A stretch of DNA of 14,831 nt, taken from IMG/VR virus record IMGVR_UViG_2537561713_000005; one strand, 5' to 3'. A model generated the notes under the pieces. It searched no databases. It saw only the letters and a list, made by a program, of their open reading frames with translations, and was not told the DNA's origin. Position 1 is the first letter of the stretch, and each line of letters begins with the position of its first letter. This stretch comes from a virus. Lineage: Duplodnaviria; Heunggongvirae; Uroviricota; Caudoviricetes. Of this stretch, positions 3,966 to 14,831 are shown one piece after another. The position numbers and the translations under genes were made by a program.

Positions 3966-5305
3966 TGCACTGGCACCTTCAGAGGGATCACCGGCACAAA
4001 GCCGGGATGCGTAATGGCATTACGCCGGATAATGTCCGCGTCACGCGCCGCGTTATCAAACCAGGTCGCCGCCAGCACCAGCGCGGGTAAAACCTCATCC
4101 GGCGTGCGCTGAATGATCCGTGCAGACTGTTCAAGGCGCGTGTTGATATCCGCATTCAGATCTGCTTTCACCCGGCGCAGCGCCAGAAACAGCGCATCAC
4201 TGGTTGTACGGGACAACTCCTTATCAATTGCCGTATTCAGTGTGTCGCGAATGTCGGTCAGTTCTTCCCACGTTGGCAGGTCAACCGTGTTTTTCACCGC
4301 CGGTGCATTGTTCAGTGCCGGATGCGTGACAGAAGGCCAGCCGGTGCTCTGCGCGGGTGTTGTTGACTGCCCTACTGTGGCATTCTGCATCACCGCGGAA
4401 GTTGTGGGCGCAGGCAATCGTGTGACGGCATACGCCGCTTCGCTGATTGCGGTCGTACGAAGGGTGCTGGCAACCACGTTACGCTGCTGCGTCGCCGTGG
4501 CGGTAGTTTTACTGTCCGTTTTCCAGACGCCGCGCGGTTGCAGATCGCTGCCGAGGCTGACACCGGAAAGCGTTTTGATCATGGTGACCAGGTCGCTGGC
4601 GTTACCATAAAGGCGTTTCCCGGTACGCCACATTTTCTGCACCTGCTCAACGAAATTTTTGCCTGACGATGGTGGCGGCAGAAGTACCGAGATATCCCCC
4701 TGCAACAGCCTGGCGGCATCCGATACGGCAGAATCCACCACTTTCATCGCATCAGAAACATACCCAAGCATTGTGCTGGCATTACCGACGACGTCGTTCT
4801 GCACAAAATCTGCCACGCCATCGATACTGAAACCACTGAAGCTGTCACTGATGCAGTCATCCAGTGCAGAACAGGATGACATCAGCGTCTGCGCCGTCGC
4901 CGCACCTGAAGTGGGGTAAGAGAGTTCTCCCGCTTCGACAAACTTCAGGTCAAAGCGGACAATACGCCCTTCACTCTTCGATGTGCTGACCCGAACTTCC
5001 CCGTCAACACAGACTTTCAGCTCACCGTAAGTCGGATGGACAAGCGTGCCGGGACCGGGTTTATTCAGCGCGTCAATCAGGCGATCGCGCTGGTCAAAGC
5101 AGTCATCTCCCACCACATAAGCTGTGATGGACGGGCGGAAAGTGATTTTCCCCAGGTCTTCGGTATAGGGTTTGTCGCGGTTCGGGTATTCGTGCGTTTC
5201 CACACGACGACCGGTTCCCGCACTTTCTTCTTCAACCTTAAACGGCACACCGCGAAATGACGCGTCCTGAAGTCTGTCTTTCCACGTCATATAAACTCCG
5301 TACAT
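3962..5305 (-). CDS. DNA circularization protein N-like (Mu gp43 family)
   Basis: 447-aa ORF directly after the tape measure gene. Alternative start at 5290 (MTWKDRLQDASFRGVPF...) has a better SD (GGAG, 5-nt spacer). Confidence 0.6.
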   Translation of the reverse strand: MYGVYMTWKDRLQDASFRGVPFKVEEESAGTGRRVETHEYPNRDKPYTEDLGKITFRPSITAYVVGDDCFDQRDRLIDALNKPGPGTLVHPTYGELKVCVDGEVRVSTSKSEGRIVRFDLKFVEAGELSYPTSGAATAQTLMSSCSALDDCISDSFSGFSIDGVADFVQNDVVGNASTMLGYVSDAMKVVDSAVSDAARLLQGDISVLLPPPSSGKNFVEQVQKMWRTGKRLYGNASDLVTMIKTLSGVSLGSDLQPRGVWKTDSKTTATATQQRNVVASTLRTTAISEAAYAVTRLPAPTTSAVMQNATVGQSTTPAQSTGWPSVTHPALNNAPAVKNTVDLPTWEELTDIRDTLNTAIDKELSRTTSDALFLALRRVKADLNADINTRLEQSARIIQRTPDEVLPALVLAATWFDNAARDADIIRRNAITHPGFVPVIPLKVPVQ

Positions 5306-7952: not shown

Positions 7953-9448
7953 TATGCAGACTCCTCTGAATACTGAAGACGGAACTGATTAACCACGGCA
8001 AAGACACGCAGCTGGTTAACATAGTCAGGCGGGAACAGCGTGTTCAGGCGGTTCGGATCGCTGGCATCACGCTCCACAACCAGGTACTGCTTAAACAGTT
8101 CGTAGTTTTCCACGATCCCCGCACGCTCAAGCTGACGGTAGGTTGCCAGCAGTTCCCCTTTGATCACCGCCGGGGTGACAATCGCCTGACCGGGACCAAA
8201 GCGGGTACCGTCACTGGCAAGCTTGTGACGCCCGTACTTACTGGTAATGACGGATTTCAGTTTGCGCAGTACATACGCGCTGGTATGCAGCGTCTCACTG
8301 TCGAGGTAACTGTTATCCGCAACCCCGTAAGCGTTTTTCCTGTACGTGGTGACATCACGCTGAATGCGTAGTACCCCGCTTTCGACATACGCCGTTGCCA
8401 CGCCATGAGACAGCAGGGTCTGTTGTTCGGTCATCGTGAACCGTTTCCCCTTCGGCGCAGGCAGCATACCCACCAGCTCACCGGTCTGCGTGGGACGTGC
8501 CGGATCGTTGCGGATAAACACCGCTGCGCGGGCGGTACGGCTTGCCGCCAGCTCGTCGGCAGGCGTCTGGGTCTCTTTTTCGTACCCCGCCAGGGTAATG
8601 TGCTGCTGGTTAAACTGGTCACCTGCGGTCACCAGTTCTGACAGCGTGCCGATCTTTGCCGTATACACATGACCATACAGCTGACGCGCATAGCTCCAGC
8701 GACCGCTGGTATCGTTCATCTCGGTCACCAGCGTGTTAACGGAGGCCGTGTCGTTGAACGGCAGGCCGATATAATCAAACGGCTCATCCGCCATTGCAGC
8801 CACCGCGCCGGTGAGAACCGGAGCACCCGTTCCGGCGGTACCCGTCGCCACGGCAATCTGTACGCCCGCTGGCAGCACTTCGCCCCCACCAAAGCCGTAG
8901 TAATTGAGGCTGACAGGAATTTCATTCCCACAAAGCCCCTTATGACGCGCGGTCAGTGTGACCACGCCTGCCAAAGATGAAGCCGTAAACGGCAGGGTCG
9001 GAACGGCATTGATGGCATCCTGGATACTGCTGGCAATCATCGTGACGTTATCGCCGTTAGTCACCGGTGCCTGCACGCGGGTACGTCCTACATACACATT
9101 CACCGTGCCGGTTTCGGTTGCCGCCCCGGTCACCGTCAGCGTAACTGTTGCCGCCGCACCTGTGGATTCAGGAACGGCAATCACATACAGCTCGCCAAAC
9201 GGGTCAGTCTGGCGATAAGCCTCGACCATACGCGCCAGCTGACTTCCCGCACCACAAATCTGGCGTGCATAGTCTGCCGACGACATCAGTACCAGACTGT
9301 TGGCAACAATCTCTGCACCGTTATTGGCATGACCAATCAGCAGCGATGCTCCGCTGTCCTGTGCAGTATTCGCCGCCTGGTTATCCATTTCCGCATAAAA
9401 CAACGGAACCAGCGTATTCGACGGAATGGTGTTAAAGCTTATCGTCAT
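7952..9448 (-). CDS. Contractile tail sheath protein (Mu gpL-like)
   Basis: 498-aa ORF followed by the tube gene; size and order as in Mu and P2. Confidence 0.8.
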   Translation of the reverse strand: MTISFNTIPSNTLVPLFYAEMDNQAANTAQDSGASLLIGHANNGAEIVANSLVLMSSADYARQICGAGSQLARMVEAYRQTDPFGELYVIAVPESTGAAATVTLTVTGAATETGTVNVYVGRTRVQAPVTNGDNVTMIASSIQDAINAVPTLPFTASSLAGVVTLTARHKGLCGNEIPVSLNYYGFGGGEVLPAGVQIAVATGTAGTGAPVLTGAVAAMADEPFDYIGLPFNDTASVNTLVTEMNDTSGRWSYARQLYGHVYTAKIGTLSELVTAGDQFNQQHITLAGYEKETQTPADELAASRTARAAVFIRNDPARPTQTGELVGMLPAPKGKRFTMTEQQTLLSHGVATAYVESGVLRIQRDVTTYRKNAYGVADNSYLDSETLHTSAYVLRKLKSVITSKYGRHKLASDGTRFGPGQAIVTPAVIKGELLATYRQLERAGIVENYELFKQYLVVERDASDPNRLNTLFPPDYVNQLRVFAVVNQFRLQYSEESA

Positions 9449-10171: not shown

Positions 10172-10674
10172 CTGCGTCGTCGCTCAGGCTTCAGTGATTT
10201 ACGTAATTCTCGCGCCAGAAAATAGCGTGTCCAGCTGCGGTTCTTTTCAAGCGTTTCCACCATAAAGTTATTACGTGGAGCCAGCCGCCAGCCGCTGCCA
10301 CCGGATGCACCACGATGATGACTACGACGACGTTTTGCTCCTCCCCGGACACCAAAAAACAGAAACGCCGGATAGAAGTCACCAGAGATCATCCGGTTCC
10401 CCTTCCCGTTGCGCTGGTTAGGGGCAATGCGTGTCATAAAACCGGCTCGCTTTTTACTGGCTCTCGGCACCATGTAACCAATCGAACGAGCCAGGCGTCC
10501 GGTCTGATAACCGGGGTTTTCACCCGGTGCCGACCGCGCACGGCGCATCACCAGCCGACGGGCATCACGCATATGACGCTGCCCAATCGTGACAAACGCC
10601 CGCCGGACACGGGCGCGGTTAAAGCGCATCTCGGCGGGCTGCTGAACATCAACGTGAAAAAAGGGAGTCGCCAT
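10168..10674 (-). CDS. HK97 gp10-like head-tail joining / tail completion protein (very Arg-rich)
   Basis: 168-aa basic ORF containing YQTGRLARSIGYMV, resembling the TGrLrnSI motif I recall for the HK97 gp10 family; overlaps the upstream gene by 26 nt. Confidence 0.45.
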   Translation of the reverse strand: MATPFFHVDVQQPAEMRFNRARVRRAFVTIGQRHMRDARRLVMRRARSAPGENPGYQTGRLARSIGYMVPRASKKRAGFMTRIAPNQRNGKGNRMISGDFYPAFLFFGVRGGAKRRRSHHRGASGGSGWRLAPRNNFMVETLEKNRSWTRYFLARELRKSLKPERRRR

Positions 10675-12697: not shown

Positions 12698-13300
12698 TTA
12701 CGCGTTAAGAAGGGTCAGGACGCGTTCACGCGCCATACGTTGATTAATGGCTTTCTGTAGCGCGCCGCTGTTGCGCGCCTCCTGCCATGCTTTCATGGAG
12801 CGAACAGCCGAGTCAGCCTCCTGATAGGCAGGATATGTCACAGGACTGACATCCAGCAGACGGGAAAAGCGGGTTATCTCGCGAATAACAACCCCGTCCT
12901 CATCCTGATACCACTCCTCGCCGTCACGGGCGACACGGAAAGCAAAAGATGACTGGTTAATATCTCCACGTTGCATCGGGGCCAGCACCAGATCACGAAT
13001 GGTCTGTGTCTCCGGAGCCTGGATGTCATAGCGCAATCCGCGCTCATCAACTGAAAGATTCAGCGTGCCTGCTGCACTACGCCCAAGAATAAAATTAGGA
13101 TCGTGGTTAAACAGTGCGCGTACATCATCACCAAGCACATCGTCAAAAGCGCCGGGCCGGATGATTTCGCGGAATGAACCAAATATCAGCTCAGAACGAC
13201 AGTCAAACACCGATCCATAACCGATAATGTGCGCAGGGTTATCGTCATGCCGCTCAGCACGCACCTCACCGCTGTAACAACGGATTTCACGGTCATTCAT
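12698..13300 (-). CDS. Prohead maturation protease, HK97 family
   Basis: Track ORF runs to 13357; I prefer ATG 13300 (MNDREIRCYSGEV…), which overlaps the portal stop as ATGAATGA and has GAGGG upstream. Body motifs (…HIIGYGSVFDCRSELIFGSFREIIRPGAFDDVL…NHDPNFILGRS…) are protease-like. Confidence 0.8.
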   Translation of the reverse strand: MNDREIRCYSGEVRAERHDDNPAHIIGYGSVFDCRSELIFGSFREIIRPGAFDDVLGDDVRALFNHDPNFILGRSAAGTLNLSVDERGLRYDIQAPETQTIRDLVLAPMQRGDINQSSFAFRVARDGEEWYQDEDGVVIREITRFSRLLDVSPVTYPAYQEADSAVRSMKAWQEARNSGALQKAINQRMARERVLTLLNA

Positions 13301-13901
13301 TGGTTTTTCCCTCATCATTTTTTGGGGGCTTAAAATCTCCTGCCGGGTTAGCAGCATTCACGCTTACCAGCATCTCATCCAGCCCTTCAACCGGATTCAT
13401 ATCCTCGAATGCGCGGGCTTCATTACGGCTCATCCATCCATCGGTAATAGCGAAGTGATAGAATTGCGCGCGCTCCTGCGGAGTTCCGCGTAAAAGCCCC
13501 GTCAGATTGAACCTAACGTAATACCCGGCGGCTAACTCAGCGCGGGTAAACAAGCGACGGTTAAGCTCCTGCTCCCAGTTCGTTACCCACGGCATCATCG
13601 TGTAGCGGACAAACTGAATCGCCTGCGCAGAAATATTGGAGAAGGTGGCTTTTTCGAGGTCATTAATCATGTGCGCAGGAATATTGAAAATACCGGCAAT
13701 CATTGAACGGTTCAGTTTCATCATGTCAATGATCTGAGCGTCAACTGGCGACACAGTCAGTGCCTTGTAATCCAGTCGGGACTGGCCTGGCTTGTATTGC
13801 TTCCAGCCCTCGCTTTTGTGGCTTTCGCAATAACCTGACGGGTCAGTCGTGGTATGGCGGCAGCCGCGAACTCGGCAGGCTTTTGGGGTTCGTGGTGGCA
13901 T
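13293..13901 (-). pseudogene. Chimeric ORF: HNH-endonuclease-like N-terminus (~45 aa) joined in frame to the portal C-terminal ~165 aa; likely deletion remnant
   Basis: ATG 13901 with GGAG 5 nt upstream; begins MPPRTPKACRVRGCRHTTTDPSGYCESH (Cx4GC…GYCxxH zinc-ribbon start of terminase-associated phage HNH endonucleases), then …GLLRGTPQERAQFYHFAITDGWMSRNEARAFEDMNPVEG…, typical of the HK97-family portal C-terminus. Far too short for a portal. Confidence 0.6.
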
Positions 13902-14020
13902 ATGTACTCCAATGAAGAAGCTACCGACATAGCCTCCTCCATTCGTCGTGAAACTATTTTCATCTACCCAGTAATGAATTCTTTGAAGAGTTGTAATCAA
14001 TACAACTCGCTAATGGAGAG

Positions 14021-14044
14021 GCTTGTCTCACACGTGAGACAAGC
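14021..14044. promoter_or_regulatory. Perfect inverted repeat GCTTGTCTCA-CACG-TGAGACAAGC with T-rich 3' flank
   Basis: 10-11 bp arms centred on CACGTG, followed on the plus strand by TTCCTGTTTGATTT; lies in the divergent intergenic region. Confidence 0.3.
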
Positions 14045-14123
14045 TTCCTGTTTGATTTACTGGACACTATAGAAGGACAGAATGCCTTCCTCACTCGAAT
14101 CACATCAATTAAGGAGGTTCAAC

Positions 14124-14246
14124 ATGTTTCATTCCACAAGTCATCAGGCTGTAATTATGGCAGCATCAGTTTGTGCCACAGACCTTTTCCGCTTCACTTT
14201 GAGCCTGATTCATTTCTACCTGACCGGCTCGCCTCTATCTTTTTAA
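14124..14246 (+). CDS. Hypothetical small protein (40 aa), hydrophobic
   Basis: Not in the track (under length cutoff). AAGGAGG 6 nt upstream of ATG 14124. My translation: MFHSTSHQAVIMAASVCATDLFRFTLSLIHFYLTGSPLSF; stop TAA at 14244..14246. Confidence 0.4.
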   Translation: MFHSTSHQAVIMAASVCATDLFRFTLSLIHFYLTGSPLSF

Positions 14247-14426
14247 TCCCCGCTTTATCCAAATTGCATTGCCAGAATGCCGACAACAGACTGACATTCA
14301 AATCCTGACTACCTCCAATAGTCTGACCGTACACCTATATAGTTTTAATTTTCATCAATCCATTTAACTATCGTTTAATTGTTGTCACATAGGATTCTGC
14401 CGTTTTTAACAATGCAGGATAATAAG

Positions 14427-14720
14427 ATGAAAAAAATGTTATTTTCTGCCGCTCTGGCAATGCTTATTACAGGATGTGCTCAACAGACGTTTACTGTTGG
14501 AAACAAACCGACAGCAGTAACACCAAAGGAAACCATCACCCATCATTTCTTCGTTTCGGGAATTGGACAGGAGAAAACTGTTGATGCAGCCAAAATTTGT
14601 GGCGGCGCAGAAAATGTGGTTAAAACAGAAACCCAGCAAACATTCGTAAATGGATTGCTCGGTTTTATTACTTTAGGCATTTATACTCCGCTGGAAGCGC
14701 GGGTGTATTGCTCACAATAA
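14427..14720 (+). CDS. bor: Bor family outer-membrane lipoprotein (lambda Bor / Iss-like)
   Basis: 97 aa from ATG 14427 (AGGA 7 nt upstream): MKKMLFSAALAMLITGCAQQTFTV…EARVYCSQ, with signal peptide and lipobox LITG|C; near-identical to lambda Bor as I recall it. The track start at 14379 is an upstream in-frame extension. Confidence 0.9.
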   Translation: MKKMLFSAALAMLITGCAQQTFTVGNKPTAVTPKETITHHFFVSGIGQEKTVDAAKICGGAENVVKTETQQTFVNGLLGFITLGIYTPLEARVYCSQ

Positions 14721-14730
14721 TTGCATGAGT

Positions 14731-14748
14731 TGCCCATCGATATGGGCA
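14731..14748. terminator. Hairpin between the convergent bor and Rz 3' ends
   Basis: TGCCCAT-cgat-ATGGGCA, 7-bp stem, in the 31-nt gap between the two stop codons; no clear U tract on either side. Confidence 0.25.
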
Positions 14749-14751
14749 GCG

Positions 14752-14831
14752 CTATCTGCACTGCTCATTAATATACTTCTGGGTTCCTTCCAGTTGTTTT
14801 TGCATAGTGATCAGCCTCTCTCTGAGGGTGA
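14752..14831 (-). CDS. Rz: Rz-like i-spanin, C-terminal 25 codons (partial, starts beyond window end)
   Basis: Minus-strand frame reads …TLRERLITMQKQLEGTQKYINEQCR then TAG at 14754..14752, matching the lambda Rz C-terminus as I recall it; convergent with bor as in lambda. Confidence 0.7.
   Translation of the reverse strand, partial: TLRERLITMQKQLEGTQKYINEQCR

Follow-up and report, generated by a model that had tools for sequence, protein, structure and literature searches.

What does a long inverted repeat do in the gap between two divergent genes of a prophage? The question is raised by a stretch of 14,831 nucleotides from a virus of the Caudoviricetes (IMG/VR virus record IMGVR_UViG_2537561713_000005), called the window in the following. 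A first-pass annotation had described a gap of about 220 bp near its right end, and the gap indeed measures 222 bp, from the start of an HNH-like gene on the minus strand (ATG, complement of 13899-13901) to the ATG of a small open reading frame (ORF) at 14124 on the plus strand. The shift in base composition noticed there was found as well, with a G+C content of 0.50-0.55 left of 13900 and of 0.35-0.44 to the right. For the repeat inside the gap, a remnant of the packaging site cos, an operator and a terminator had been offered as explanations. Our analysis suggests that it is probably something else, namely the stem-loop of a compact expression cassette, which lies antisense to the late operon at the junction of lysis and packaging genes in SfV/HK97-like and lambdoid prophages. 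The anatomy of this cassette can be given with high confidence from the sequence comparisons: a stem-loop between a T7-like and an SP6-like promoter match, ahead of a micro-gene under selection, which we call orf40.

The repeat, GCTTGTCTCA-CACG-TGAGACAAGC, occupies positions 14021-14044 and is the longest short-range inverted repeat of the 14.8-kb window. By an arithmetic estimate, a perfect 11-bp repeat with a spacer of up to 8 nt is expected about 0.03 times by chance per 14.8 kb. It had been presented as a perfect 24-bp palindrome; sequence and position were right, but it is an interrupted inverted repeat, the central CACG having no self-complementarity. A repeat search returned perfect 11-nt arms (14021-14031 and 14034-14044) with a spacer of 2 nt, which can be extended to 14 nt (14018-14031 and 14034-14047) if one G.T is allowed. 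On the plus strand, the resulting stem-loop (14018-14047) has a stem of 13 bp, including one G.U, and a CACG loop. Its RNA is predicted to fold at -21.1 kcal/mol (z = -5.2 against shuffles), that of the minus strand at -17.7. As noticed before, a T-rich stretch, TTCCTGTTTGATTT, follows the repeat. No larger RNA structure beyond the hairpin was detected across 14016-14320 (z = -0.7), and a pairing with the Shine-Dalgarno sequence suggested by one fold was dismissed since it is disrupted in the commonest variant (C14091A). A scan of 13850-14450 against Rfam with E values of up to 10 returned sub-threshold matches only, the best being Atu_C9 with 20.9 bits against a gathering score of 40.

The origin of this element became apparent when the intergenic region was compared with phage genomes by BLAST, which matched temperate relatives and, in addition, lytic SP6-like podophages. 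The Vectrevirus phages ACG-C91 and mutPK1A2 carry GTCTCACACGTGAGAC, a 16-nt core identical to window positions 14025-14040 on the plus strand, and 15 nt later ATTTACTGGACACTATAGAAG, identical to window positions 14055-14075. In ACG-C91, copies identical to the window core are located at 10275 and 15129, and the extended stem of the window, GGCTTGTCTCAC..GTGAGACAAGC, resembles a third copy at 9059, GGCTTGTCTCACATGTGAGACAAGCTC. The palindrome of the Molineuxvirinae, GTCYNACRYGTNRGAC, is characterized by a 16-nt core, an extended stem of the form GGCTT...AAGC and a location 2-14 nt upstream of an SP6-like promoter, and the window displays all of these features. The genera have their own versions, GTCTCACRYGTGAGAC in ACG-C91, GTCTAACRYGTTGGAC in the SP6-like Zindervirus UAB_Phi78 and GTCCAACRYGTTGGAC in Klebsiella phage Kp7. 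Each Molineuxvirinae genome harbors six to nine syntenic copies, several of which precede, by 2-7 nt, the first promoters that follow the RNA polymerase gene. One copy precedes the promoter of the gene homologous to SP6 gp20, and at this place the window-type and SfIV-type versions of the prophages have their parallels in ACG-C91 and UAB_Phi78, respectively. The 16-nt palindrome also lies inside the coding sequences of RNA polymerase and primase/helicase, at 4964 and 7640 in L103, 7491 in L005 and 7049 in L129, positions that are syntenic across three genera. The function of the palindrome in podophages appears to be uncharacterised.

Two phage-type promoter sequences, which had escaped the first-pass annotation, flank the repeat (13998-14020 and 14055-14075). 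The downstream one, ATTTACTGGACACTATAGAAG on the plus strand, is a predicted SP6-like (Molineuxvirinae) promoter with its +1 at G14072. It agrees with the promoter consensus of ACG-C91 at 21 of 21 positions (-17 to +4), so that both the specificity region (-12 to -8) and the TATA unwinding region are covered. The sequence occurs once in the window, and 200 shuffles of the window yielded no match with three or fewer mismatches. ACG-C91 has four exact and nine near copies; without exception they lie on the coding strand, in most cases just 5' of genes. The counterpart in SfIV, ATTTAGGTGACACTtTAGAAG, is of the SP6/Zindervirus type. Among the prophage copies, the variants ACTGG, AGGTG, AATGG and ACTTG (..CAGTATAGG..) were found, some of which match forms of real podophages, ACTGG being present in Vectrevirus and AGGTG in SP6/Zindervirus.

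The upstream sequence, CAATACAACTCGCTAATGGAGAG (13998-14020, plus strand), is a putative promoter for a T7-like single-subunit RNA polymerase of the Berlinvirus type, with a predicted +1 at G14015. It is the sole site of the window within five mismatches of any of 28 natural Berlinvirus promoters, the nearest of which differs at three positions. The SfIV region likewise matched T7-like phages of Yersinia, Salmonella and E. coli at a site annotated as 'promoter'. The sister copies in SfIV, CAATACGACTCACTAATGGGGAG, and in L024, CAATACAACTCACTAATGGGAGA, are each one mismatch away from promoters of Yepe2 (phi17 and phi9) and Bas68; the annotated promoters of the Berlinvirus Yepe2 read TAATACAACTCACTAATGGGAGA (phi9) and CAATACGACTCACTATTGGGGAG (phi17), and the E. 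coli K-12 Berlinvirus Bas68 has CAATACAACTCACTAATGGGACA together with similar sites. Counted from G14015, the stem-loop would take up about +4 to +33 of a T7-type transcript, and 5 of the 13 Yepe2 promoters have a stem-loop anchored at +1 in the same manner. A perfect 8-bp inverted repeat, GAGTTGTA/TACAACTC (13988-13995 and 14001-14008), overlaps the upstream half of this promoter; covariation of the 8-bp repeat with promoter position -11 was rejected, the pairing being inconsistent across variants. A third phage promoter in 13902-14000 was discarded as well, for lack of similarity to lytic phages. The two predicted starts are 57 nt apart, and both promoters point toward orf40. No gene for a single-subunit RNA polymerase was seen in the window or in the examined flanks of its relatives. 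A search of 13200-14831 for sigma-70-like promoters was negative on either strand, and neither a host promoter driving orf40 nor a small RNA ending at the hairpin could be made out there.

Conservation of the palindrome in related phages had been named beforehand as a test, and it is conserved with compensatory changes in the 99 related prophage copies from IMG/VR that made up our variation set. The covariation analysis was carried out on 14 distinct variants. In these, 95.6% of the stem cells are paired, against 31-49% in slid controls; three stem pairs are changed on both sides, and the covariation score was reached by none of 500 shuffles. The stem evolves via double substitutions (TC..GA to CA..TG) with G.U intermediates (T-A, T.G, C-G), and G.U accounts for 26 of the 182 stem cells. 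Since these cells keep their pairing in plus-strand RNA only, they argue for an RNA hairpin that is read in the direction of both promoters. The same cells bear on the proposal of a double-stranded DNA operator, in which a dimeric protein, most plausibly one encoded by SP6-like phages, would bind the 16-bp palindrome and regulate the adjacent promoters. Such an operator would explain why the sequence itself is conserved over all six to nine copies of a podophage genome, those within coding genes included, why it keeps within 2-14 nt of promoters, and why there are genus-specific forms (TCTCAC/GTGAGA versus TCYAAC/GTTGGA). T.G, however, breaks the symmetry of the DNA while leaving the RNA paired, and it is present in 7 of 9 UAB_Phi78 copies as well as in the prophages; moreover, the stems run beyond the 16-nt core, their outer pairs covary, and no candidate for the binding protein was identified. 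We regard an operator as rather improbable.

In three independent copies, unrelated DNA substitutes one half of the palindrome exactly from its centre. The left half is replaced in L011, at a distance of about 50 nt on the 5' side of the SP6-like promoter; in the Klebsiella phages L132 (RCIP0114) and L133 (ST13-OXA48phi12.5), it is the right half, near position 790. These replacements hint that the centre of the palindrome is a hot spot of breakage or recombination.

Downstream of the promoters, a predicted SP6-type transcript would begin with a leader of 52 nt (14072-14123, plus strand), which is the most conserved stretch of the module (51 unique copies). It offers a possible GAAGG/CCUUC stem at its 5' end (14072-14089) and a consensus Shine-Dalgarno sequence, AAGGAGG (14111-14117), 6 nt 5' of the ATG at 14124; the leader alone shows no significant fold (z = -0.03). 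The intact ORF that follows, orf40 (14124-14246, plus strand), encodes 40 amino acids, MFHSTSHQAVIMAASVCATDLFRFTLSLIHFYLTGSPLSF, and ends with TAA. An in-frame ATG at 14082 would give a form of 54 amino acids; it has no ribosome-binding site and lies inside the conserved leader, for which reasons the shorter form is preferred. Unbroken at 40 amino acids in all 98 complete copies, orf40 consists of two halves that differ in their substitutions. Codons 21-40 display eight synonymous changes and a single non-synonymous one (an L-to-M in one copy), which shows that the C-terminal half is under purifying selection, while about 25 non-synonymous and 4 synonymous changes were counted in codons 2-20, which points to either diversifying selection or a lack of constraint in this half. 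Tail to tail with orf40, and overlapping its last 17 codons and stop, lies what remains of the 3' end of an o-spanin gene (lysC/Rz1-like; 14194-14334, minus strand), whose position is supported by the lysC that the PGAP pipeline annotated at the equivalent place in ECOR29 and by the annotation of SfIV. Of the 10 substitutions that lie under this antisense frame, 1 is synonymous there and 9 are non-synonymous. The changes thus spare the peptide of orf40 but not that of lysC, and lysC was rejected as the cause of the nucleotide conservation in the 3' half. The peptide is predicted by AlphaFold2 to form a single helix over residues 2-34, with a predicted local distance difference test score of 83. 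Close, near-identical homologues are rare, only 15 among 5.8 billion proteins. A tblastn search found no orf40 in lytic phages, and a derivation from SP6 gp20, which has a similar upstream region, was rejected because the proteins show no similarity.

Is this arrangement a particularity of a single phage lineage? By tblastn, the C-terminal motif of orf40 was also detected in temperate phages of Klebsiella, six of which have a common order: a hairpin; a T7-like promoter, for example TAATGCGACTCACTATAGAGAGA; the palindrome GTCCAACRYGTTGGAC; AATAGTGGCGAG(G/T)ATAGAA; the motif TTAATGTTACNNGAGTAGGAA; a Shine-Dalgarno sequence; and an ORF of 35-40 amino acids, which ends at the same TAA over the end of Rz1/lysC. 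Among these elements is AATAGTGGCGAGTATAGAAG, the promoter consensus of the lytic Klebsiella phage Kp7, which has 12 copies of it and seven palindromes. The motif TTAATGTTACNNGAGTAGGAA (L127 at about 1840-1870, L131-L134, and L151 at 11482) was found in 45 IMG/VR contigs of KP34-like Drulisvirus, where the RNA polymerase gene lies on one side of it and the head-tail adaptor gene on the other, and it is probably the late promoter of these phages. A fourth conserved stretch of the Klebsiella cassettes reads AGTTACACAATAGAA. Among the payload peptides, at least four sequence types without similarity to each other can be distinguished; all of the peptides are short, and most are clearly hydrophobic (best 17-residue Kyte-Doolittle window up to 2.45). 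To judge by these sequences, the Klebsiella cassettes are an independent replicate, in which the same design returns and the promoters fit the podophages of the respective host.

This recurrence has to be set against a simpler explanation, according to which the site is a functionless recombination scar, a promoter-plus-hairpin fragment taken up from podophages in mixed infections, with a hairpin that serves at most as a terminator or insulator for the host and with orf40 as an unrelated moron. Transfer of DNA is indeed suggested by the identity with ACG-C91, which goes from the core over hairpin and promoter to a few positions of the leader; mosaic joints are frequent in the vicinity, and a terminator scan flagged the site as terminator-like. 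A scar would hardly account, however, for co-oriented promoters of Studiervirinae and Molineuxvirinae, which occur together in none of the podophages examined, nor for a layout that is rebuilt in Klebsiella prophages with host-matched promoters and even a third type. Promoters and leader are also among the best conserved parts of the module, and there is no upstream plus-strand gene to terminate. We therefore consider a scar unlikely, though somewhat less so than an operator.

A terminator in its own right, shielding the late operon from transcription of bor, had been among the first proposals. The polarity is wrong for such a role: on the plus strand, transcription of bor and the small ORF leads away from the hairpin. 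The hairpin with its U-rich tail can work on plus-strand RNA only, upstream of both genes, and it does not stand at the 3' end of a plus-strand transcription unit, as only the antisense of the HNH/portal fusion described below lies upstream. A terminator-like stem-loop is thus a fair structural description to which the wrong role had been assigned. The U-tract, CUGUUUGAUUU, is interrupted and lies partly within the next promoter, and it was accepted by a loose terminator scan. With respect to known elements, the stem-loop resembles Rho-independent terminators in its G+C-containing stem of 10-13 bp, its 4-nt loop and the U-rich stretch on the plus strand, but differs from them in the interruption of the U-tract and its absence in Klebsiella, in the lack of an upstream plus-strand gene and in the conservation of the core sequence, for which a terminator has no need. 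Termination is unlikely to be its only role, because the T-tract is not strong and the Klebsiella modules lack it, and because copies of the core lie inside podophage genes, where a plain terminator would not be tolerated. The stem-loop could block stray plus-strand transcription, stabilise the 5' end of a T7-type transcript, or be the copy of a promoter-proximal element of SP6-like phages.

The explanation as a cos remnant (a cosN of the HK97/SfV-type packaging site) drew on the two-fold symmetry of the repeat, its nearness to the HNH gene and the assumption that cos lies upstream of the HNH and terS genes. The gene order of intact relatives (640R1 and ECOR29) is Rz, bor in some cases, the small ORF, the intergenic region, HNH, about 130 bp (128 bp in 640R1), terS, terL and portal. 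The linear map of SfIV begins at terS and finishes with cos, HNH being the last gene (PMC3851460). In SfIV and 640R1, cos is therefore located downstream of HNH, between HNH and terS, and the palindrome on the side of HNH that faces the lysis genes, so that a mapping of cos elsewhere in relatives, which had been named as an outcome that would speak against the idea, is what was found. Relatives that are intact and cos-proficient have the palindrome at an unchanged location, and it is an element of podophages to which it shows homology. A comparison with known cos regions, which had been recommended, finds nothing to align, as the segment between HNH and terS is absent from the window; the corresponding regions of 640R1 and SfIV have a single chance 11-mer in common with it. 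A cos remnant is refuted by position and retains next to no probability.

The missing segment is explained by the gene left of the gap. The late operon is read on the minus strand, with the end of the Rz gene at the right edge of the window, the ORF 13293-13901 and then the head and tail genes. This ORF (minus strand) fuses 42 amino acids of an HNH N-terminus to the C-terminal third of a portal protein (Pfam Phage_portal 200-321 against residues 41-167). The joint is placed at about 13777-13786, since the SfV portal gene aligns with 13600-13786 and SfIV HNH from 13777; the overlap of about 10 bp between both matches may reflect microhomology. Judging from these alignments, the fusion ORF is a deletion scar, with loss of the HNH C-terminus, cos, terS, terL and the portal N-terminus. 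Without cos, terS and terL, the window prophage cannot package its DNA. In E. coli O157:H7 strain Show KS 470-1 (L105, 1249-2912), the HNH gene, which stands beside an identical cassette, is split by IS1203, a different inactivation of the same packaging region.

The gap had also been regarded as a likely mosaic joint. Joints do occur nearby, the deletion at about 13777-13786 and a second one at about 14313, between the truncated lysC and bor, but the intergenic region itself is part of a conserved portable module. This module extends from about 13905/13930 to 14313, includes as its left part the 5' leader of the minus-strand HNH gene (13902-13997, conserved with SfIV and 640R1), and is flanked by variable genes, the small ORF being the only constant downstream gene on the plus strand. 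Homology of the SfIV type stops at about 14313, after which DNA of the bor type follows; the joint marks the replacement of an SfIV-type lysis cassette by a lambda-type Rz and bor/iss. The bor/iss lipoprotein gene (14427-14720, plus strand) lies downstream of orf40, matches lambda-like bor and is called 'iss' by PGAP in O157:H7.

The state of the packaging genes also matters for a further explanation, a hitch-hiking or satellite-like use, in which the promoters would recruit the polymerase of an invading phage for replication priming, recombination, or expression and spread of the prophage, the peptide being secondary. A use of this kind is reported to have been proposed for islands with tandem T7-like promoters (see below), which offer a precedent of such promoters on elements without a polymerase gene. 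In T7, the primary origin lies right after the RNA polymerase gene, and T7 origins are primed by transcription; the position of the palindrome-plus-promoter pair directly after the RNA polymerase gene of Molineuxvirinae would suit such a use, as would the three independent rearrangements that break exactly at the centre of the palindrome. On the other hand, transcription is directed away from the packaging genes, the downstream genes vary, and the constant downstream element is a small ORF under purifying selection. Neither a packaging signal of the T7 type nor a concatemer junction was seen, and in the window the cassette is intact in a prophage that cannot package at all. Hitch-hiking thus appears improbable, about as much so as an operator.

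We therefore return to the expression cassette as the preferred explanation. That infection by another phage would trigger its expression seems rather likely, whereas a role in defense, deduced from the architecture, is put forward tentatively. In a lysogen, the cassette would be silent, and the stem-loop would help to stop stray transcription of the plus strand. Upon infection by a T7-like or SP6-like phage, which shuts off the RNA polymerase of the host, the polymerase of the invader would transcribe orf40 strongly. The peptide, probably membrane-active, would then harm the infection or the infected cell, and sister lysogens would be protected by abortive infection or exclusion. In its full form, this amounts to a natural tripwire: temperate phages of E. 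coli, Shigella and Klebsiella would stack copied T7-like, SP6-like and KP34-like promoters before a tiny membrane-active peptide, so that the invader's own polymerase, the only transcription machinery left at work once that of the host is shut off, would express a suicide or exclusion factor. We consider this possible, with less than an even chance. If it is correct, an arms race with local podophages would have left its traces in the promoter variants and in the hypervariable N-terminal half of the peptide.

Several points weigh against this interpretation. All functional steps are inferred from sequence. The T7-like promoter copy of the window has a G at -6 (A>G), a base absent there from all 28 natural promoters; its activity is therefore uncertain, and it may be weak or dead. 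If the hairpin terminated a T7-type polymerase, the upstream promoter would be left with a short RNA only. Since the T-tract is not conserved in the Klebsiella modules and core copies occur within podophage genes for RNA polymerase and primase, the primary role of the hairpin may be other than termination. The N-terminal half of orf40 is at or above the neutral ratio; instead of an arms race, this could reflect relaxed constraint. In hydrophobicity, the E. coli peptide is no more than a borderline case (best Kyte-Doolittle window 1.5, and 1.05 for the SfIV form), and searches of Pfam, NCBIfam, PHROG and PADLOC with orf40 returned no matches and hence no homology to a known toxin or defense protein. 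Finally, with one genome per bacterial species, the SP6-like consensus gave 21 matches in unrelated taxa, which is about the number expected by chance; the cassette is thus taxonomically narrow.

How does such a cassette compare with known systems? Chen and Schneider are said to have described, in 2006, tandem T7-like promoters on enterobacterial islands without a polymerase gene, in 12 clusters, with the implication that they depend on an infecting T7-like phage. The islands are reportedly 4-13 kb in size, with a tyrosine integrase upstream of the promoters and with terminal direct repeats; their promoters are reported to serve several phage-like genes, and the islands to have been interpreted as satellites. 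By this description, they are the closest precedent, sharing with our cassette the tandem T7-group promoters, the location on an integrated mobile element and the absence of a visible cognate polymerase gene. Unlike the islands so described, the cassette resides inside the late operon of SfV/lambdoid phages of 37-53 kb and combines two polymerase specificities (three in Klebsiella) within about 60-200 bp, a podophage palindrome and one peptide of 35-40 amino acids. The late signals of Autographiviridae (T7 phi10-type; SP6/K1-5) have the same components, that is, a consensus promoter, a stem-loop near +1, AAGGAGG about 6 nt before the ATG and, in the Molineuxvirinae, the palindrome beside the promoter. 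In contrast to these lytic phages, the cassette belongs to temperate phages, joins promoters of two subfamilies and has no single-subunit polymerase gene in the window or in the flanks examined.

Genes that respond to a second phage are known from satellites and from engineered systems: the late promoters of P4 are activated by P2 Ogr, phage-inducible chromosomal islands (PICI) and PICI-like elements (PLE) are induced by helper proteins, and a phi31 promoter has been coupled to LlaIR as a suicide cassette in Lactococcus. As with the genes of phage satellites, the gene of the cassette would be switched on by a transcription component of another infecting phage; the trigger, however, would be the invader's entire RNA polymerase acting on a copied promoter and not an activator of the host polymerase. 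With type I toxins and effectors of abortive infection, the peptide shares a length of 35-40 amino acids, a predicted single helix, hydrophobicity in most members of the family and the proposed silence until triggered, but unlike a type I toxin-antitoxin system it comes with no detected antisense RNA antitoxin or host promoter, no Rfam family and no similarity to toxins. In the literature, we found no description of this cassette and no natural defense of such a design.

The cassette is present in 632 of 5426 complete E. coli genomes (about 12%), O157:H7 included, and is unannotated in nearly all of the records listed. Even without a role in defense, the analysis demonstrates a flow of DNA from lytic podophages to temperate phages and corrects a tempting misannotation of the locus as cos or as a plain terminator. 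It also draws attention to an apparently uncharacterised family of palindromes in the SP6-like phages, a group that serves in therapy against K1 E. coli, Salmonella and Klebsiella. Should the cassette work in the proposed way, a function would be assigned to a region that is left blank in about one of eight complete E. coli genomes, and there would be a short list of candidate peptides for phage exclusion together with natural, host-matched promoter and terminator parts for phage-responsive circuits. Use of the invader's promoter would then explain how a prophage gene can be expressed after a T7-type shut-off of host transcription. Temperate phages of these enterobacteria would thus possess a device for defense or competition with an unusual sensor, one that presents the invader with its own promoter rather than detecting a phage protein or nucleic acid.

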